From: Promethearchaeota archaeon
Lineage (GTDB): Archaea; Asgardarchaeota; Lokiarchaeia; Sigyniarchaeales; Promethearchaeaceae
Assembly (NCBI GenBank): GCA_016933055.1
Contig: JAFGBS010000014.1
Location: forward strand, 120,001-152,000
Direction of reading: 5' to 3'
DNA: 32,000 bases
Shown here: positions 5,123 through 13,707 of the stretch, piece by piece
Layout of the letters: every line of letters starts with the position of its first letter
How positions within the stretch are numbered: the stretch's first letter is position 1
The notes under the pieces: generated by a model
Told to the model about the DNA's origin: nothing
Seen by the model: only the letters and a program-made list of their open reading frames with translations
Database searches by the model: none
Position numbers and translations under genes: made by a program

Positions 5123-6532
5123 TTGAATGAGAAAGTAGAAAAGATGTTTGAGAAATTATTGAGCGCACTCGAATTCGATAGTACTAAATTTTTTAGCTCT
5201 GAACTAAGTACTGAACAAGAGAAAATCAAAAAGCAGGTCGATGAAATTCTGGGAGATAATATTGAATCGGAAATAAAAATTTTAGGAGGAAAACTCGATG
5301 TGGAGGAATTCAATAAATTAGAAATACAGATCCAAAATCACCTCCAAAATCCCATCTTCAAACCCTATGAGGGTGATCTCACTAAATTGACTGAAAAATG
5401 GCTTCTTCATAAGAAAAATGAATTTATTCATCATCTATTTCTTGTATGGAAGGTAAAAGATTTTCCATTTTCCTCAGTGACCTTTTTCACAGTACCACAA
5501 ATTGATTGGCAAGAGGGAAAAGCGGATCGTATGAAATTAAACACCGATAAAATCGCTTTTTGTGGGGAGATTGAAGCTTTAGCGAACCGAACTGTATTAT
5601 ATGCGAAAATTTCCAAAGCAGATCCCTTATTCGCACCTCATATCGGAAATTTGGATCTGGCATCCTACAAACCCGATGCTGCAGATCAGACCCCAAAGTC
5701 GCACAATTTACGATTTGTAAAGGAAATTTTATCTTCACTTGAAAGAAAATCTACACAAAACCAAGTTACACGCTATGATTCTCAATATGAACGCCACGGA
5801 GAACCTATTTGCGATTATTTCATGCAGAATGATAATTTGAAGAGATCTATGAATAAATTAACCTCCGCTTTAGACTCTAAGCGACAAACTTCGAATGCTG
5901 CAATCTGCGGAATCTTGCTTCCATTACTCAACACTTCTATGGTACTAATTAGCGATGAAAGTTCTGGACTGACAGCGAATAAATTAGAGACAGCCTTTGA
6001 AGCATTACTTAAATTTGCTGCAACAACCTATCAATTCCCTAATGTGAAAAAGGGTCCAGAATTATCACAAGCGATAAATACTGGATCATTAACACCCCAA
6101 ACTTCTGTAGCTTCAACTGGTCCTCAGCTTCAAGTGTGGACAGAAGAAGAACTTGTAGCGGAAGCCACGAAACGAGCTTCAGCAGAACCTGATTTATCAG
6201 TATGGACGGAGGAAGAACTTATCGAAGAATCTAAGAACCGTACTGGAGTAAATTTACCCACTTGGACAGAAGAAGAATTGGAAGAAGAGCGAAAGCGGAA
6301 GATGGGAACGGGAATGAATGTTCCTGATTGGATCCCTGATGAGAGTCTTGTGCAATGTCCAAAATGCCATTACACATGCAAACCAGAATGGGGTTCGTGT
6401 CCAATGTGTGATACACCTTTGCCATCTGTCAACACAACTGAAGCAGAATCTGAACTAGAGTCAAATGATGAAGATCTAGAAGAAGAAAAAGAAGATGTTG
6501 AAGAAGACAGTAATGAAGACAACGAAGAATAA
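5123..6532 (+). CDS. Hypothetical protein with WTEEEL repeats, C-terminal zinc ribbon and acidic tail
   Basis: Three W-T-E-E-E-L motifs plus a degenerate fourth; CPKC-x10-CPMC; D/E-rich C-terminus. TTG start with GAGGT upstream. Confidence 0.8.
   Translation: MNEKVEKMFEKLLSALEFDSTKFFSSELSTEQEKIKKQVDEILGDNIESEIKILGGKLDVEEFNKLEIQIQNHLQNPIFKPYEGDLTKLTEKWLLHKKNEFIHHLFLVWKVKDFPFSSVTFFTVPQIDWQEGKADRMKLNTDKIAFCGEIEALANRTVLYAKISKADPLFAPHIGNLDLASYKPDAADQTPKSHNLRFVKEILSSLERKSTQNQVTRYDSQYERHGEPICDYFMQNDNLKRSMNKLTSALDSKRQTSNAAICGILLPLLNTSMVLISDESSGLTANKLETAFEALLKFAATTYQFPNVKKGPELSQAINTGSLTPQTSVASTGPQLQVWTEEELVAEATKRASAEPDLSVWTEEELIEESKNRTGVNLPTWTEEELEEERKRKMGTGMNVPDWIPDESLVQCPKCHYTCKPEWGSCPMCDTPLPSVNTTEAESELESNDEDLEEEKEDVEEDSNEDNEE
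6134..6349 (+). repeat. Intragenic tandem repeat, 60-66 bp unit, encoding (V/T)WTEEEL
   Basis: Trp codons at 6137, 6203, 6263 and 6329 (spacing 66, 60, 66). Units: gtgtggacagaagaagaactt / gtatggacggaggaagaactt / acttggacagaagaagaattg. Confidence 0.85.
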
Positions 6533-6547
6533 ATCGCGTTATTGTCT

Positions 6548-8086
6548 CTATTTTTTTTGAGAATCTTCTGAAATCTCTACGTGATCGATGGTAACGGTCC
6601 CTTTTTTATCCATCATTCCCTCAGTTTCCTTGTAATACTCATATGATCGTTTCGATACCTTTTTCATGAACGCATCTATTGCTTGGTGTTTTTCGGGAGC
6701 TAATGGGGGAACTCTCTGTATTTCTAGAATTGAATTTACTTTCTCTCTGGCGCGTTGCACGATATCCTTAGATCCTTTTTTTCTCCAGGAAGTTCGCCGA
6801 TTTCTGTCTGCTAAAGCTGGCAAAAAATGAGCAGTACGCATCTGTGTTAAGGTATGCTTATCATCTAAGAAATTTGCTCCTTTCTTTTCACTTCTTACCA
6901 CTCTTTGGATAGCTTCGAGTCCAATGGTATTCTCATTAACTTCTATACCCTCCATTGTGTGTTTAATCATACTCACAAGCTCGTCATCAATTACCAGAAG
7001 CTCCAGTGCTTCAGCTAATGTAGCTTCATAGGAACCCGCACACGTAATATAATTACATCCTGCTTGAGCCGCTAGCATTAATGTTTGATACCGTTCAAAT
7101 CCATTTTGCATATCTAATAGTTTGGAATCGGTAACTGCACCAGGACCACGAGATGGAATATTATAATATCGCCCCAGCTGTGCAATTCCGGCTGTGATTA
7201 ACCCGGTTTCCACCGAACCCATGGCAGAATTCCCCGTTCGCATATCCGTTATATGAGAAACAGTACCGTAAAGTACTGGTGCTCTTGGATTATAGATCTG
7301 AGCCAGAACAGCCCCAGCAAGGATTTCAGCATTGGTTTGGGCAAGTAATCCAGCTAGCGTTATAGGTGCAGTAGATCCTGCTAAAGCTTCTGGTGCTAAG
7401 ATTGTAGGTTGTTTATATTTCGCAAACACTTCAAAACCATTTGTCATCAATTGAGAGAATGAGAGAGGACTGGTAATTGAAAAGAATCCTATTAAACGAG
7501 GGTGAGTAATAAGTTCATTTTTTCCACCCACGATAATTGAGAGTAAATCCATCATATCTTGACTTGGAAGTCTTCCAAAACAGCCTAACCCATAGGGTTT
7601 AGTAGAATTCTGTGCCCAAGCCTTAATTACGTGACAATGTAATTCAAGATAAGGGACATCATGGGGCCAGACATCGACATGCGAACAAATGATGTTTTTT
7701 AATGAATCTACTATCCGAATCTGGTTAATGGTATCGGTAAGAACAGTTTTTCGGACACCCCGCTGATGTTCAGGATCATAAATTCTAACAGGGGTGCCAA
7801 TAGTAGCATATTGAGTAGAGTGAGTGTTCACTTCTGCCGTGAAATCACCATCCCTACCATGGAGAACAAAGGAATCTGGTATTAATTTGAGCTTCTCTTT
7901 CACGAGATCATTAGGAAATTTTACATAAGGTGAGTCGTCAGCTACGATAGCCCCATTTTCATTCAGAGATATCCTTAAGCCGGGATCTTCCACATTAATA
8001 CCAATCTCTTCAAGAATTTGCATAGATGCATTGTGAATCTCTTTTATTTCATCCGAAGAAAATATCTCCAATTTAGGTAATTTCAT
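6548..8086 (-). CDS. Trimethylamine methyltransferase (MttB) superfamily, non-pyrrolysine, paralog 1
   Basis: EIKEIHNASMQILEEIGI, LAGSTAPITLAGLLAQTNAEILAG, APVLYGT, LGRYYNIPSRGPGAVTDSKLLDMQNGFE. No in-frame amber codon. Confidence 0.92.
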   Translation of the reverse strand: MKLPKLEIFSSDEIKEIHNASMQILEEIGINVEDPGLRISLNENGAIVADDSPYVKFPNDLVKEKLKLIPDSFVLHGRDGDFTAEVNTHSTQYATIGTPVRIYDPEHQRGVRKTVLTDTINQIRIVDSLKNIICSHVDVWPHDVPYLELHCHVIKAWAQNSTKPYGLGCFGRLPSQDMMDLLSIIVGGKNELITHPRLIGFFSITSPLSFSQLMTNGFEVFAKYKQPTILAPEALAGSTAPITLAGLLAQTNAEILAGAVLAQIYNPRAPVLYGTVSHITDMRTGNSAMGSVETGLITAGIAQLGRYYNIPSRGPGAVTDSKLLDMQNGFERYQTLMLAAQAGCNYITCAGSYEATLAEALELLVIDDELVSMIKHTMEGIEVNENTIGLEAIQRVVRSEKKGANFLDDKHTLTQMRTAHFLPALADRNRRTSWRKKGSKDIVQRAREKVNSILEIQRVPPLAPEKHQAIDAFMKKVSKRSYEYYKETEGMMDKKGTVTIDHVEISEDSQKK

Positions 8087-8100
8087 CTAGAGTTCCTCTT

Positions 8101-8742
8101 TTATGAAACCAAACCAAGACAGAGTTTTACTGCTCCAATAGCATCATCTGCCCATCCATCTGCCCCGATATTCTTAGCCCAATCTTCGGATGTAGGTGCA
8201 CCACCTACTACAACTTTAAATTTGTCGCGCTTTCCTTCTCTCTTCAATAGTTCAATGAATTTTCTCTGAATATCCATAGAAATAGAGAGAAGTGCTGACA
8301 TTCCGATGATTGTGGCTCCAAATTCTTCTGCTTTTTCCAAAAACATTTCCGGGGCGACATCTACACCTAAATTATGCACTTCAAAACCATTCGCAAAGAG
8401 AAAAGAACCAACCAAGTCCTTCCCAATCGAGTGAATATCGCCTTCTACAGTACCTAAAACGACAACACCTTTAGTTTCTTTTTTTACTCCCGATTCCCGG
8501 ATAATCGGATCAAGTAATTCATCGATAGTAACCTTAACTGTATTGGCAGCAGCAATTAGTTCCGGTAAAAAAATCTCTTCTTTTTCGAATCGATCCCCTA
8601 CCTGTTTCATTACATCTCCAATCATCCTCAAAAGTTCTACTGCGGTAGCTTGTTTATTATCTAATGAAGTTTTACAGATTGATTTCACCTTATTTTCATC
8701 AAAATCTAAAACAGCGGTTTGAAGTTGTTCTTTTAAAGACAT
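8101..8742 (-). CDS. Corrinoid (B12-binding) methyl-acceptor protein, MttC/MtbC type
   Basis: Cap domain (GDRFEKEEIFLPELIAAA), GTVEGDIHSIGK (DxHxxG cobalt ligand), IIGMSALL, VVVGGAP, IGADGWADDA. Confidence 0.93.
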   Translation of the reverse strand: MSLKEQLQTAVLDFDENKVKSICKTSLDNKQATAVELLRMIGDVMKQVGDRFEKEEIFLPELIAAANTVKVTIDELLDPIIRESGVKKETKGVVVLGTVEGDIHSIGKDLVGSFLFANGFEVHNLGVDVAPEMFLEKAEEFGATIIGMSALLSISMDIQRKFIELLKREGKRDKFKVVVGGAPTSEDWAKNIGADGWADDAIGAVKLCLGLVS

Positions 8743-8851
8743 AAGGATAGGATCAATGTGGATGTAAAAAAAGCTTGTCTAGAGTTCCGATTTTAGAAGT
8801 TGAATAAAAATATTAGTTACGAAGCTGAACTAAGAACCAAGGTGCACTATA

Positions 8852-10387
8852 TTGAAACTGCAAAAATTGGAAGCATTATCCCATGCTGAAGTGGAAACAA
8901 TCCATGAATCTACTCTTCGTTTGTTAGAAGATGTTGGCGTTATGGTTCACTCTCAAGAAGCGAGAGATTTATTGAAACAAAATGGATGCATTATTGATGA
9001 AAGTCCCTCAAATTTCTTCCATTACGTGAAATATCCACGACATGTAGTGGAAAAGTATCTAAAATTAGTGCCAGATAAATTTACTTTACATGGTGTGGAT
9101 GGATCTTATAATTTCACGGTAGATACTGAAACAACTCATTATGCAACTGTAGGCACTCCAGTTAAGATATTTGCTCCAGAAAAAAAAAAGAGTGTCCGGA
9201 CATCTGTTCTGGCAGACACGATTAACCAAATCCGAGTTGTAGATTCATTAAAAAACATTAAATGTTCTCATAGTGACGTTTGGGCTAATGATGTGGAATA
9301 TCTCCAGTTGCATTGTCATGTAATTAAAGCTTGGGCTAAAAACAGTCGTAAACCCTTTGGATTAGGGGCTCTGGGCCGTACTGCATCGCAAGATATGATG
9401 AATTTGCTTAGCATTTTGGTGGGTGGTGGTGAAGAACTTAAGAAAAGACCGCGTTTAATTGGTTTTTATAATCCTACTAGTCCCTTACTTCATCCTACCA
9501 TCATGCTTAATGGATTAGTGGTATTTGCGAAATATAAACAGCCCCTTATAATAGCTCCTGCCGCAAGTGCAGGTTCTACTGCTCCAGTAACTCTTGCAGG
9601 ATTGATCGTGCAAACCAATATGGAAGCTCTATCTGCAATTGTTCTTACTCAAATGGTGAATTCTGGAGCCCCAGTGCTTTATTCTACTATGTCCGCTCCA
9701 ATGGATCCTCTAACAAGCAACGTATCTTGGGGGAGTATCGAAACGGGATTAATTACTTCTGCATTTGCTCAACTTGGTCGATATTACCGAATCCCCAGTC
9801 GGGGACCTGGTTGTGTTACTGAATCAAAGATTTTCGATATCCAGAACGGGTATGAACGCTTTATGACTCTTTTTTGTGCGGCAACAAGTGGAATCAATTA
9901 TATAACGTGTGCAGGAACGTATGAGAGTTCTTTAACAGAAGCATTAGAATTGTGGATAATCGATGACGACCTTATGAGTATTGTCTCTAGAGCAAAAGAG
10001 GGAATTATGGTTGATGATAACACACTTGCTACTGATGTAATACGAGAAATATCCCAAAAGGAAAAGAAACATTATTTGGGGCATAAACATTCCGTACGAA
10101 ACATTCGTAACGAATTATATGTTTCAAAATTAGCGGATCGTAATCGTCGCACCATTTGGAAAAAAAATGGATCCAAAGACATTGTACAACGAGCAAAAGA
10201 AATTGTGGAACATATTTTAGAAACTCAAAAAGGACTCGGAATGGATCCTGCTATCGAAAAACGATTTGATGAGTACTGGGATACTTATGTTAAGCCTCGG
10301 ACCATGGATGATTTCAGAAAATTAGAAGGTATGGAAAACGCTACTGAATCAGGAGTATCCTACGGACAAGATATAACTGGAGGATAA
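8852..10387 (+). CDS. MttB superfamily methyltransferase, non-pyrrolysine, paralog 2
   Basis: Same motifs as paralog 1 (AGSTAPVTLAGLIVQTNMEAL; LGRYYRIPSRGPGCVTESKIFDIQNGYE). TTG start with AGGTG upstream. Confidence 0.92.
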   Translation: MKLQKLEALSHAEVETIHESTLRLLEDVGVMVHSQEARDLLKQNGCIIDESPSNFFHYVKYPRHVVEKYLKLVPDKFTLHGVDGSYNFTVDTETTHYATVGTPVKIFAPEKKKSVRTSVLADTINQIRVVDSLKNIKCSHSDVWANDVEYLQLHCHVIKAWAKNSRKPFGLGALGRTASQDMMNLLSILVGGGEELKKRPRLIGFYNPTSPLLHPTIMLNGLVVFAKYKQPLIIAPAASAGSTAPVTLAGLIVQTNMEALSAIVLTQMVNSGAPVLYSTMSAPMDPLTSNVSWGSIETGLITSAFAQLGRYYRIPSRGPGCVTESKIFDIQNGYERFMTLFCAATSGINYITCAGTYESSLTEALELWIIDDDLMSIVSRAKEGIMVDDNTLATDVIREISQKEKKHYLGHKHSVRNIRNELYVSKLADRNRRTIWKKNGSKDIVQRAKEIVEHILETQKGLGMDPAIEKRFDEYWDTYVKPRTMDDFRKLEGMENATESGVSYGQDITGG

Positions 10388-10391
10388 GTTA

Positions 10392-11681
10392 ATGAGTGAA
10401 AATTTAGACAATAAAGAAGAACGAGATGTAAAACAAGATGAACGTAATCGAAAAAAATGGGATAAATGGCGATTTGAAACTCAACTGATGCGTGCTGGAG
10501 AAGAACCATATCCAGAAACCTCTCATTCATTGCGAGTGCCTATTTATGCAACAAAATCCTACACATTTTCGAAATTAGATGATCTAATGCAAGATCGGTA
10601 TTATTATTCGCGAACTGAAAATCCAACTCGATTTGCACTGGATCAAAAACTAGCTACCTTACATGGAGGTGAGGCATGTCTGAGTGTCGCTTCTGGTATG
10701 GCAGCTATACATCAGTGCTGCAGTTCTGTACTCCAGCAACATCTGGAACGCGTTAAACCAAATAAAGCCAGAAAATTATTACCTCAATCACATCCTGACG
10801 ATATACCCAACATTATAATCCATAATAACCAGTACACGGGAACACATCGTTTGTTTACCAGTCTTTACCCTCAGATGGGAATTGAATGCAGACGGGTGAA
10901 TATGGAAGATCTATCTGAAGTGAAAAATACTATAGATGAGAACACTAAACTGATTTTTATAGAAACTCCGGTGAATCCAAATGTACATGTCTTGGACATC
11001 CAAGCCTTATCCGATGTTATCCATGAAGTGGGGGGAGTGAGTATTATAGACAATACTTGGGCATCACCTTCTATTACCAAGCCATTGGAGTTTGGAGCAG
11101 ATATTGTTGTAGAAAGCCTAACAAAATATATCAACGGACATGGTGATGTGGTTGCTGGAGCAATAATTGGAGGGAAGAATAGGATTCGGGATATTAGATA
11201 TTATTGGAATGAGACTCAAGGAGCAGTACTTAGCCCATTTGACTCATACTTAGTATTACGGGGAATTAAAACCTTAGATTTACGTATGAGAAAACATTCC
11301 CAAAATGCAATGAAAGTAGCAAAAGCCTTAGAGAAGCACGAAAACGTAATGAATGTGACCTATCCTGGACTGGAAACTCATCCACAATATAACATCGTAA
11401 AAAAGCAAATGAAACTCAACGGAGGGATGGTAGGAATTGAACTACCATCAGAAGAAGCCAGTCTAAAGTTCATCGATAATTTGGAACTCATAAAAATAGG
11501 AGTGAGTTTGGGAGATACTACGAGTTTAATTGAATACACTGCATTTATGACAGGAATTGATCTTTCACCGTGGGAACGAAAATCCATGCAGATTTCTAAA
11601 TCACAATTCCGATTATCGGTAGGTTTGGAAGATGCACGTGATTTAATTCAAGATCTGAAAAATGCTTTAGATGCTATATGA
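10392..11681 (+). CDS. PLP-dependent Cys/Met metabolism enzyme (cystathionine gamma-lyase/synthase, methionine gamma-lyase family)
   Basis: YYSRTENPT, SGMAAI, ETPVNP, DNTWASP, ESLTKYINGHGDVVAG (PLP lysine), VSLGDTTSLI, RLSVGLED. Confidence 0.92.
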   Translation: MSENLDNKEERDVKQDERNRKKWDKWRFETQLMRAGEEPYPETSHSLRVPIYATKSYTFSKLDDLMQDRYYYSRTENPTRFALDQKLATLHGGEACLSVASGMAAIHQCCSSVLQQHLERVKPNKARKLLPQSHPDDIPNIIIHNNQYTGTHRLFTSLYPQMGIECRRVNMEDLSEVKNTIDENTKLIFIETPVNPNVHVLDIQALSDVIHEVGGVSIIDNTWASPSITKPLEFGADIVVESLTKYINGHGDVVAGAIIGGKNRIRDIRYYWNETQGAVLSPFDSYLVLRGIKTLDLRMRKHSQNAMKVAKALEKHENVMNVTYPGLETHPQYNIVKKQMKLNGGMVGIELPSEEASLKFIDNLELIKIGVSLGDTTSLIEYTAFMTGIDLSPWERKSMQISKSQFRLSVGLEDARDLIQDLKNALDAI

Positions 11682-11706
11682 TCTCTCAAATCTCGAATAA
11701 ATTGTG

Positions 11707-12267
11707 CTATTTTTCTTTTTTGGAAAAACCTTGCAATCCAATCAGTGTTTTTTTCTCAGTTTTATAATACATACCATTCATATATAAAATAAAATCGATT
11801 TTGTCACTTTGGATACTCTGATTTGTGATATATAACTCATCTAGGTGATTTGCTACAATCTCTCCAAAAAATACGGTATGAGACCCTAAGGATTGAAATC
11901 CCACGGTTTTGCATTCCATATTACAAGGGAATTCTGCGATTAAAGGAGTGTTCACAACTATCCCCTTCTCTTTAGTCAATCCCAATAGTTCCCACTTATT
12001 GTGATTTCTTCCACTTATAGTTCCACATGCATCCATAATTTTGGTCTGTTCTACAGTTGGTATATTGAGTACAAATTCCGGGTAAGTTTCAAGAAGGGTG
12101 TGTGAATATCTTGCCGGATGAACTCCGATCGCGATTACTGGGGGATTCATACACACCTTTCCCACATAAGCAAGAGTAATTATATTTGCATTACCCCAGT
12201 TCCCAACAGTAACACATGCGATTGGCATGGAAAATAAGGTTTGATTTATACTAACTTCCTTTTTCAT
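11707..12267 (-). CDS. Flavin reductase-like FMN-binding protein (flavoredoxin, DIM6/NTAB family)
   Basis: ANIITLAYVG, PPVIAIGVHPARYSH, EFVLNIP, CGTISGRNHNKW, PLIAEFPCNMEC, LGSHTVFFGEIV. Start set to the ATG at 12267 rather than 12300. Confidence 0.88.
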   Translation of the reverse strand: MKKEVSINQTLFSMPIACVTVGNWGNANIITLAYVGKVCMNPPVIAIGVHPARYSHTLLETYPEFVLNIPTVEQTKIMDACGTISGRNHNKWELLGLTKEKGIVVNTPLIAEFPCNMECKTVGFQSLGSHTVFFGEIVANHLDELYITNQSIQSDKIDFILYMNGMYYKTEKKTLIGLQGFSKKEK

Positions 12268-12309
12268 ATAATAAAATGAGAAAGAATATGAAAAAAACAT
12301 AACTCACAT

Positions 12310-13707
12310 TTAGTGGTTTTCAGTGTGACGATGTTGCACTTTTTCTTTCTTTTGTTGATGCATCTCATCCAATTGAAACTTAATTTCCTTGACTCGCTTT
12401 TTTGAATATGGAAACACGAACAAACAGATTAAACAAATCATGAGAGATATTGCGGGAAATCCAGCTACTAAAAATCGGATTCCAAATTCCGTGGTTTTCC
12501 CAGGATCAGGAGTCCACTCTCCCCAGCCAGTTCCCTCAAATACTAGTGTAATGCAAAGTATGGATAATATCATTGAAAGTCGCATAAAAAAGTTGGTGAT
12601 CCCGAAGAACGTCCCTTCTCTTCTCACGCCAGTTTTTAGTTCATCTTCATCGATCACATCCGCCACTATTAGATAGATATAATACAAACAACCTCCAAAT
12701 CCTAAACCCATTGCACCTGCTGTGTATGCTGCTTGCATATAATCTGTAATAAAGAACAGCGGAATAGAAGTCCCAACGTAAAAGATAATGGATATAATAA
12801 AGCTTATTTTGCTTCCAATCTTGCGGTGAAGTAACCACCACAGTGGAACGGTTATGAATCCGACAATAAAGAGAATCGCGGTTAGTATAGATGCACTGAA
12901 AGCATCCACATCTAAAATATGCTTTCCAAAGAGGGGAATGACGGTTCCTATCGTAAGAATAAAAAATTCATAGAAAAAATAGATAATTGTATAGATAATA
13001 AAACCTTTGTTCTTGAATGCATACTTTAATCCTTGAAGAAAACTAAATTCATGTTTGTGATCTAGAGAAAATTCAGATCGTTCCTTAATTCCCCAAATCA
13101 ATGAAATTATGACGGTAATGGCTACTATCAATGAAATTACTATTCCATTTATAAGGTATCCTTTTTCGACTTCAATATCGACAATTATGGACCCCGAAAG
13201 GAGATATGCTGCCAATAACCCGATGATGGATGCAAGTTGTTTAAAGGTATTCGACGATGCTCTTTGTTTCTCCGTCAAATACATTTCCGGAAATAGTGTA
13301 TCATATGGTAATGCTAAGCAAGTATAAAAAATATCCCACGCAATCAGCATACCGAGTAAATACCAAAATAGACCAATATCCGTCCTCACGGGCGGAATCC
13401 ACAACACAATTTCCACTACAATTACACCGAGTAACCCAAAGATAATGTAGGGTTTTCGTCTTCCAATCTTTGTTTGTGTTCTATCTGACAAGTAACCGAT
13501 TAATGGATCGTTAACAGCATTCCATAAACTCCAGATCACAAATGCTAATCCGATATATATCGCATCTAGCTTTAAAGCGCTAAAATAAAAGGAAAAAACC
13601 CAAGTACTAAAAGCTGCATTAACAGCCCAAAGGGCTAGATTACCAAAATTAAACGCTACATGTTGAGTCCATCTGGAATAATATCGGTCGTTATTTAGTT
13701 CGTTCAT
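12310..13707 (-). CDS. MFS transporter, glycoside-pentoside-hexuronide (GPH/MelB) cation symporter family
   Basis: WNAVNDPLIGYLSDRTQTKIGRRKPY; ADVIDEDELKTGVRREGTFFG; about 12 hydrophobic segments. Confidence 0.9.
   Translation of the reverse strand: MNELNNDRYYSRWTQHVAFNFGNLALWAVNAAFSTWVFSFYFSALKLDAIYIGLAFVIWSLWNAVNDPLIGYLSDRTQTKIGRRKPYIIFGLLGVIVVEIVLWIPPVRTDIGLFWYLLGMLIAWDIFYTCLALPYDTLFPEMYLTEKQRASSNTFKQLASIIGLLAAYLLSGSIIVDIEVEKGYLINGIVISLIVAITVIISLIWGIKERSEFSLDHKHEFSFLQGLKYAFKNKGFIIYTIIYFFYEFFILTIGTVIPLFGKHILDVDAFSASILTAILFIVGFITVPLWWLLHRKIGSKISFIISIIFYVGTSIPLFFITDYMQAAYTAGAMGLGFGGCLYYIYLIVADVIDEDELKTGVRREGTFFGITNFFMRLSMILSILCITLVFEGTGWGEWTPDPGKTTEFGIRFLVAGFPAISLMICLICLFVFPYSKKRVKEIKFQLDEMHQQKKEKVQHRHTENH

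Follow-up and report, generated by a model that had tools for sequence, protein, structure and literature searches.

The stretch of DNA analyzed here (the window, 32,000 nucleotides from contig JAFGBS010000014.1 of the Promethearchaeota archaeon assembly GCA_016933055.1, with positions counted from its first letter) carries a cassette in which methyltransferases of the MttB superfamily are encoded next to a pyridoxal phosphate (PLP) enzyme of cysteine and methionine metabolism. On the reverse strand lie the gene for MttB-1, a non-pyrrolysine MttB-superfamily methyltransferase of 512 amino acids (6548-8086; PF06253, E 6e-103), and, upstream of it, the gene for an MtgC/MtbC-like corrinoid (B12-binding) protein of 213 amino acids (8101-8742; PF02310 and PF02607). 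Both are placed upstream of, and divergent from, the forward-strand gene for MttB-2, a second non-pyrrolysine paralog of 511 amino acids with a TTG start (8852-10387; PF06253, E 2e-94), and the AT-rich intergenic region of 109 bp between the corrinoid gene and mttB-2 (8743-8851; aataaaaatatt) presumably acts as a bidirectional promoter. Next to mttB-2, on the same strand, is the gene for the PLP enzyme, a protein of 429 amino acids that resembles methionine gamma-lyase (MGL) and that we will refer to as the lyase (10392-11681; PF01053, Cys_Met_Meta_PP, E 2e-121). An importer of the MFS_2 (GPH) family is encoded convergently to it on the reverse strand (12310-13707; PF13347, E 5e-65), and between the lyase and importer genes, also on the reverse strand, lies a gene for a flavin-reductase-like protein of 197 amino acids (11707-12300; PF01613, E 1e-26).

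The junction between mttB-2 and the lyase gene reads ACT GGA GGA TAA gtta ATG, with a Shine-Dalgarno-like GGAGGA motif within the last codons of mttB-2 and a spacer of 4 bp (GTTA), which agrees with the gap reported between these two open reading frames (ORFs) in a preliminary description of the window. Because of this short spacer and its GGAGGA motif, we regard the two genes as an operon with a translationally linked arrangement. A prediction of a complex between MttB-2 and the lyase gave a score of 0.00, which is evidence neither way, and we do not claim that the proteins bind each other.

The association of these genes extends beyond the window. We searched 41 related genomes for orthologs of the lyase and of MttB-1 (for the latter with a threshold of E < 1e-200) and found lyase orthologs, with 57-66% identity, in 10 of them. 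Seven of these ten genomes were inspected over 15-20 kb around the lyase gene, and in six the locus consists of the MttB-1 and corrinoid protein genes, the divergent MttB-2 and lyase genes, and the convergent MFS_2 gene; the seventh (L013) keeps the corrinoid protein, MttB-1, the lyase, and MFS_2 but lacks MttB-2. The same gene set is present in other orders in metagenome-assembled genomes (MAGs) labelled Hod-, Thor-, and Hermodarchaeota. For instance, in L022 the lyase gene precedes mttB-2, and L020 has a single MttB. A profile search of genome contigs with the lyase alignment returned mostly generic family matches and one further Asgard locus, L025, from another Promethearchaeota MAG, with the same pattern.

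We thus compared twelve loci from several Asgard lineages (the window, L013-L020, L022, L024, and L025), and in these the lyase gene adjoins those for the corrinoid protein and MttB-1, with or without MttB-2, and that for MFS_2 wherever the contig covers those positions, even though gene order varies and identity is around 60%. The contig of L024 is cut at the MttB-2 end, leaving the side of the corrinoid protein and MttB-1 unseen. Orthologs of the importer (48-55% identity) adjoin the lyase or MttB-2 gene in all 11 of the other loci, and the loci with a single MttB (L013 and L020) retain the MttB-1 type. Four members thus make up the conserved core of this cassette of Loki-type and other Asgard archaea: MttB-1, the corrinoid protein, the lyase, and the MFS_2 carrier. 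MttB-2 is an optional addition, a paralog that some lineages lack. The preliminary description had presented MttB-2 as the partner of the lyase; their adjacency stands in the window, but the constant partners of the lyase are MttB-1, the corrinoid protein, and the importer.

This linkage is not only conserved but also specific. Among the 41 related genomes, MttB-1-type orthologs were found in the same 10 as the lyase and in one more (G001), which is 76% complete and whose contig stops inside the cluster, within the N-terminus of MttB-2. As a negative control, we used 79 bacterial and other non-Asgard loci containing PLP homologs with at most 40% identity, and in none of the 79 was an MttB or MFS_2 gene found within 10 kb. 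The adjacency in the twelve loci, the co-occurrence in related genomes, and the control loci rule out a chance linkage of lyase and MttB, and the conservation of the pairing, on which the preliminary description had made its proposal depend, holds. Most relatives, including some with complete genomes, lack the lyase gene, which indicates that it is an accessory and not a housekeeping gene. In one of the genomes (G040), a remnant similar to MttB-1 is found at C310:54902-55813, with 58% identity over residues 207-510 and four in-frame stops, and no lyase ortholog was found in that genome; this is an apparent joint loss of the cassette.

The lyase itself combines features of several enzymes of its family. 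Its closest match in both sequence and fold is MGL (EC 4.4.1.11; Citrobacter freundii 2RFV and Pseudomonas putida 1GC0), with 38% identity, and MGL structures are the best matches of its AlphaFold2 model (predicted local distance difference test, pLDDT, of 88.6), with template modeling scores of 0.86 to the query and 0.94 to the target. The MGL equivalog TIGR01328 also gives its best NCBIfam score, but the 363.6 bits obtained are below the cut-off of 549.7; the model for cystathionine gamma-synthase (CGS) gives 353 bits against a cut-off of 513, and no NCBIfam equivalog cut-off is reached. Alignment to 2RFV and to the orthologs shows that the catalytic residues are conserved: K245 is the PLP lysine, D220 the aspartate at N1 of PLP, Y72 and R74 correspond to MGL Y58 and R60, which come from the neighboring subunit, Y148 to the catalytic Y113, S372 to Ser339, and R407 to R374, the arginine for the alpha-carboxylate. 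K245, D220, Y148, R407, Y72, and R74 are invariant in our lyase alignment (A2).

It is in the loop of the MGL residue Tyr113 that the enzymes part. The MGL motif aIYGCTH aligns with nQYTGTH in the lyase (Y148-T149-G150-T151), so that the active-site cysteine of MGL (Cys115/116 of Y-G-C-T) is absent and Gly150 is found in its place. An insertion at around residues 117-140 (HLERVKPNKARKLLPQSHPDDIPN), before this loop, has no counterpart in 2RFV; it amounts to 21 amino acids compared with Escherichia coli MetB and 21-22 overall, and contains a predicted helix at 123-129. The preliminary description had reported both YTGT in place of YGCT and an extra insertion of about 20 amino acids, and both are seen in our alignments. 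An assembly or alignment artefact is ruled out by 120 Asgard lyase orthologs, in all of which the insertion is free of gaps and in which Y-T-G is 95-100% conserved (Gly150 at 95%). Other features that are specific to the clade and conserved in it are Thr149, Glu76 in YSRTENPT (where the family has Gly, as in SRRGNPT of E. coli CGS), MTG in place of MTH, Asn/Glu in place of MGL Lys239/Asp240, a deletion of 6 amino acids near MGL Phe49, and an extra, basic N-terminal helix.

Two positions suggest how the distal part of a substrate might be handled. Arg153, which is 100% conserved and is not found in MGL, lies in the loop Y-T-G-[ST]-[HY]-R-L-F, a form of the loop Y-x-G-[ST]-[YH]-R-L-F of CGS and cystathionine gamma-lyase (CGL; E. 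coli MetB 1CS1 and human CGL 2NMP), enzymes with which the lyase also shares its fold and catalytic residues. It corresponds to R106 of E. coli CGS, which binds the distal carboxylate, and, we presume, to R119 of human CGL. Conversely, Val371, in GVSLGD, is conserved throughout the clade and agrees with the Val of MGL in VSLGD, whereas E. coli MetB has Glu325 there (AESLGG), which binds the distal amino group, as presumably does Glu339 of human CGL at the same position. Judging from these residues, the lyase appears to be a catalytically intact hybrid, with the Val of the methionine lyases and the Arg of the cystathionine enzymes. Thus, the kinship to MGL implied by the preliminary description is borne out by the best sequence and fold matches, but not by the loop, which is nearer to that of CGS and CGL (GSYRLF, with Arg153).

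Among 1.8 billion representatives clustered at 50% identity, the lyase forms one isolated cluster; this cluster of its own scores 596 bits, with the next single-domain proteins at 278 bits or less and at most 44% identical. The clade comprises at least 120 clusters at 90% identity, and all those with a named source are from Asgard archaea. Three longer proteins (P0125, P0126, and P0127, of around 760-800 amino acids) each have two stretches that match the lyase with 36-37% identity and might represent fusions or tandem copies of Cys/Met PLP domains. The lyase is the sole Cys_Met_Meta_PP gene of its genome, which is 91% complete, and in this genome MetA (PF04204) had no match and MetX (TIGR01392) only fragments of 19-29 bits against a cut-off of 500. 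Thus, unlike CGS and CGL, the lyase gene is found in an accessory, transporter-linked context, in a genome in which no homoserine-activating enzyme was found. Given that it encodes the only enzyme of its family, that MetA and MetX were not found, and that most relatives lack it, we conclude that the lyase is an accessory enzyme that goes with the cassette rather than a housekeeping transsulfuration enzyme. This, together with its isolated clade, is a point in favor of the reading given in the preliminary description.

Both MttBs match PF06253 over its full length (316.7 bits for MttB-2 and 344.9 bits for MttB-1, with a cut-off of 25), are around 52-55% identical to each other, and are encoded by ORFs that are open and lack internal stops; at least 120 ortholog clusters of MttB-2 are found in Asgard archaea. 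Their TIGR02369 scores are below the cut-off, and at the position of the pyrrolysine (X) of Methanosarcina barkeri MttB (7xcl), MttB-2 has Val322, which is invariant in 39 sequences. Pyrrolysine read-through of a TAG within the match was considered and rejected, as the ORF of MttB-1 is open from the ATG at 8086 to its stop and the TAG is outside the coding region, where the match extends beyond the ATG. The nearest systems are MtgB/MtgC of Desulfitobacterium hafniense (PDB 2QNE and 9YCE) and MtpB, MtcB, MtyB, and MthB of Eubacterium limosum, with MtgB being the best solved match of both MttBs (E 4e-64 to 4e-73, the latter for MttB-1).

The residues of MtgB for glycine betaine (Y97, R312, H348, and F356) were set by experiment, and the same study reports that MtcB, MtpB, MthB, and MtyB share R312 but not the aromatic pair (PMC13080624). 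Arg317 of MttB-2 and its equivalent in MttB-1 correspond to R312 and are invariant in our MttB alignment (A1), whereas Y97 is replaced by Val100, H348 falls in a gap, and F356 is replaced by Ser in MttB-2 and Thr in MttB-1. Since only the carboxylate-binding Arg of these four residues is kept, MttB-1 and MttB-2 would be substrate-demethylating methyltransferases (MT1 enzymes) for an acid-bearing substrate other than glycine betaine. That neither MttB has the glycine-betaine site of MtgB is a further point in favor of the reading given in the preliminary description.

The MttBs of the cassette also have residues of their own. Common to both paralog groups are Cys138-Ser-His140-x-Asp142-x-Trp144, His154/His156, and Cys353. 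His154 also aligns with a His of MtgB. None of MtgB, M. barkeri MttB, and 4yyc has Cys138, His140, or Cys353 at the corresponding positions. Active sites of TIM barrels are located just after the barrel strands, and in the model Asp142, Trp144, and Cys353 lie just past strand ends, with His140 near an end and Cys138 in the middle of a strand. With their acidic, aromatic, and thiol side chains, these residues might bind a metal or an alpha-ammonium group; by inference only, we take them as the main lead to a substrate of the amino acid or sulfur type. The main difference between MttB-1 and MttB-2 lies in a single loop (GTVSHITDMRTGNSAMGS versus STMSAPMDPPTGNVAWGS), which suggests that they may act on related but distinct substrates or in successive steps.

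The corrinoid protein has the DxHxxG motif in the form D-I-H-S-I-G, and its best NCBIfam match is MtgC (NF047995), with 192 bits, below the cut-off of 310. The nearest solved relatives of the importer are the lysophosphatidylcholine symporters MFSD2A (E 1e-25), followed by MelB (7e-12). The cargo of MFSD2A has a zwitterionic quaternary-amine (trimethylammonium) head group, and this analogy is a weak hint that the cargo of the importer might also be zwitterionic and onium-bearing. Outside of the cassette, the genome encodes MtrH, eight URO-D-like proteins that are candidates for the second methyltransferase (MT2), and, on the same contig as the cassette, a RamA-like activase (G000:C22:49066-49860). 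Thus, neither the hand-off of the methyl group nor the reactivation of the corrinoid need be encoded in the cassette, and the location of such genes outside the cluster is usual for bacterial MttB systems.

On balance, we favor the view that this cassette has an accessory, catabolic role, namely the import, demethylation, and cleavage of a methylated, acid-bearing, and probably amino-acid-like zwitterion. The MFS_2 carrier would import a methylated zwitterion with an acid group and most likely an alpha-amino-acid moiety, and MttB-1, together with MttB-2 where present, would transfer a methyl group from an onium centre (a quaternary nitrogen or a sulfonium sulfur) to the Co(I) corrinoid protein. 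Before cleavage, the substrate would give up one or two methyl groups in this way, and these would be passed on by the methyltransferases encoded elsewhere (MtrH and the URO-D-like MT2s), with the RamA-like activase keeping the corrinoid reduced. The PLP enzyme would then carry out the alpha,gamma- (or alpha,beta-) elimination of the demethylated amino acid, releasing a 2-oxoacid, ammonia, and the leaving group. The analysis establishes the identities of the genes, the intact catalytic residues, the strict co-occurrence and adjacency, the isolation of the lyase clade, and the pockets that differ from that of MtgB, while we infer the order of the steps, their catabolic direction, and the nature of the substrate.

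Several points weigh against this view. Known non-pyrrolysine MttBs take one methyl group off a quaternary alpha- or omega-amine, and the tertiary amines that they produce are not substrates for PLP enzymes unless the onium is on the side chain. The retention of Arg153 and the absence of the MGL cysteine mean that the lyase might instead have a cystathionine-like or gamma-replacement role. In addition, the cassette of this window contains no MT2 gene (nor did we see one within the cassette in any of the other eleven loci), and our statements on the pockets are drawn from alignment and strand positions, in a model of MttB-2 whose pLDDT is below 50 around residues 354-374.

Two more specific readings differ in whether the methyl groups come from sulfur or from nitrogen, and we consider the two about equally likely and each, taken by itself, fairly unlikely. 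In the first case, the substrate would be S-methylmethionine (SMM), methionine, or both: one MttB would convert SMM to methionine by taking the methyl group off the sulfonium, the second or the same MttB may take the thioether methyl (methionine to homocysteine), and the lyase would split methionine or homocysteine into 2-oxobutyrate, ammonia, and methanethiol or H2S. The route from SMM through methionine to 2-oxobutyrate is our leading specific candidate, albeit a tentative one, and the idea that MttB-1 and MttB-2 take methyl groups from sulfur before the lyase splits the demethylated amino acid, in a methyl-conserving route, is similarly doubtful. It is consistent with the proximity of the lyase to MGLs in sequence and fold and with its MGL-type Val371, where the cystathionine enzymes have Glu. 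By chemical reasoning, the spacing between onium and carboxylate in SMM is that of gamma-butyrobetaine and carnitine, both of which are listed as substrates of the MttB family (PMC13080624). Two paralogs could suit two sequential demethylations, yet cassettes with a single MttB exist. The clade-specific Cys138-Ser-His140, Asp142, Trp144, and Cys353 could, from their modeled positions, bind the alpha-ammonium group or a metal, with the Cys and His residues as those that might form a metal site. Nevertheless, the signature Cys of MGL is absent (Gly150), Lys239/Asp240 are replaced by Asn/Glu, Arg153 would be superfluous for methionine, and we know of no precedent in the MttB family for the use of a methyl group bound to sulfur. 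A stable isotope probing study in marine sediment found no uptake of 13C-methionine by its three Asgard operational taxonomic units (PMC11905757), although these units need not carry such a patchily distributed cassette.

In the second case, the substrate would be an amino-acid-like compound with a quaternary ammonium on its side chain or distal moiety, such as a trimethylammonio amino acid or a homoserine- or homocysteine-linked betaine. The MttBs would demethylate it in the manner of known quaternary-amine systems, and the PLP enzyme would then eliminate the gamma-substituent with its carboxylate bound by Arg153. The characterized non-pyrrolysine MttBs all use acid-bearing quaternary amines (PMC13080624), and Arg317 is kept. 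The CGS/CGL-type Arg153 of the GSYRLF loop and the conserved Glu76 of YSRTENPT, where the family has Gly, would suit such a substrate, the latter if the distal group is charged, and the importer resembles MFSD2A, a carrier of a zwitterionic trimethylammonium head group. However, the aromatic pair with which MtgB accommodates trimethylammonium is not conserved, the case is built wholly from residues, and we cannot name an abundant natural compound of this kind.

A quite different role, which we consider improbable, is methionine supply. Here the MttB and corrinoid proteins would deliver a methyl group from an imported betaine to homocysteine made by the PLP enzyme (acting as a cystathionine beta-lyase, a CGS, or a sulfhydrylase), in a B12-dependent analogue of betaine-homocysteine methyltransferase. 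The Tyr148/Arg153 loop does resemble that of E. coli MetB, and the NCBIfam score for CGS is near that for MGL (353 and 364 bits). Elsewhere, clusters of corrinoid methyltransferase genes (mlp) have been tied to methionine and methyl-sulfur metabolism (PMC10418091), and core methionine synthases can use methyl-corrinoids (PMC7857596). Against this role stand the failure to find MetA, or MetX above its cut-off, in the 91%-complete genome, the accessory nature of a gene that is absent from most relatives, complete genomes included, the presence of Val371 in place of the Glu to which cystathionine's distal amino group would bind, and the lack of a homocysteine methyltransferase in the cassette. 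The same low probability is meant to cover a variant in which the PLP enzyme has an ordinary transsulfuration role and its linkage is accidental, which the conserved adjacency and the control loci contradict. As for the capture of free methanethiol by an MttB, proposed in the preliminary description, we rate it unlikely because the invariant, carboxylate-binding Arg317 argues for an acid-bearing substrate.

Searches of the literature found no published description of a cassette that combines MttB with a Cys/Met PLP enzyme. Asgard MttB-like genes have been described beside MtrH in other Asgard classes (PMC11291895), an arrangement different from that with the lyase. Like MtgB/MtgC, the cassette encodes a TIM-barrel MT1 without pyrrolysine that keeps the carboxylate-binding Arg (R312), alongside a corrinoid protein with DxHxxG, and it is also similar in that the MT2 and the activase are encoded elsewhere (PMC13080624). 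In contrast to it, the cassette has two paralogs per corrinoid protein, a PLP lyase, and an MFS_2 carrier instead of a BCCT or ABC carrier. Among published systems, the closest analogue is the family of Type 1 mlp clusters of Kountz and Balskus, in which corrinoid methyltransferase genes of non-methanogens are likewise found with enzymes of sulfur amino acids and for which a role in methyl-sulfur or methyl-selenide metabolism was proposed (PMC10418091). Those clusters, however, contain MtaA/MtbA-like methyltransferases of the URO-D family with ordinary MetY, MetB, and MetC, and not MttB, so that family, taxa, and gene set are all different.

To our knowledge, non-pyrrolysine MttBs are numerous in genomes while only five substrates are known for them. 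These are glycine betaine, proline betaine, carnitine, gamma-butyrobetaine, and phosphocholine. The cassette thus offers a testable handle on a new MttB substrate, probably a methylated amino acid, and points to an undescribed feeding on a methylated amino-acid-like compound in many Asgard archaea, which are the closest archaeal relatives of eukaryotes. This bears on the use of methylated organic matter by Asgard archaea in sediments. Should the substrate prove to be S-methylated, the MttB superfamily would gain its first class of sulfur-methyl substrates, and the cassette would connect the methyl-sulfur cycle (SMM, methionine, and methanethiol) with both corrinoid methyl transfer and the Wood-Ljungdahl pathway.

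Some genes accompany the cassette less regularly. A flavin-reductase homolog is found in two of the twelve loci, the window and L013 (12782-13357, beside MttB-1, in a genome from another family), and is therefore outside of the core; its presence might be coincidental or reflect an optional helper function in redox chemistry. In 8 of the 11 other loci, two paralogous genes in tandem, encoding proteins of 366-382 amino acids with no Pfam match, lie beside the MFS_2 importer (for example, L015:12209-14711, L016:4141-6570, and L020:11936-14235); they are absent from the window and may represent extended synteny or an optional part of the cassette. On its other side, beside mttB-1, the window has an ORF of 469 amino acids (5123-6532) that matched nothing in Pfam or NCBIfam and for which a search of L013-L019 detected no homolog.

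Further MttBs occur outside of the cassette. The same genome encodes a third one (G000:C27:3291-5296), with around 29% identity to MttB-1 and belonging to a type found widely in the sister family, which convergently adjoins an ORF of 344 amino acids with the only Meth_synt_2 (MetE/URO-D clan) match of the genome, and the two are probably a separate MT1-MT2 pair. Sister paralogs with 46-52% identity to MttB-1 and MttB-2 are found at other loci in unrelated contexts that do not help to name the substrate. For instance, one lies beside a URO-D-family MT2-like gene (L108:6589-9154), another with a flavin adenine dinucleotide (FAD) oxidoreductase and an MFS_1/BT1 carrier (L109:3926-8245), and another with a DUF362 iron-sulfur protein (L106:7543-10386). 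With respect to habitat, among the sequencing runs listed, only a sediment metagenome (X1), from which this DNA may derive, contains all of the words sampled from positions 6548-13707 of the window, and no RNA run containing them was listed. A hot-spring metagenome run (X2) contains 46% of them, so a close relative may live in a different habitat.

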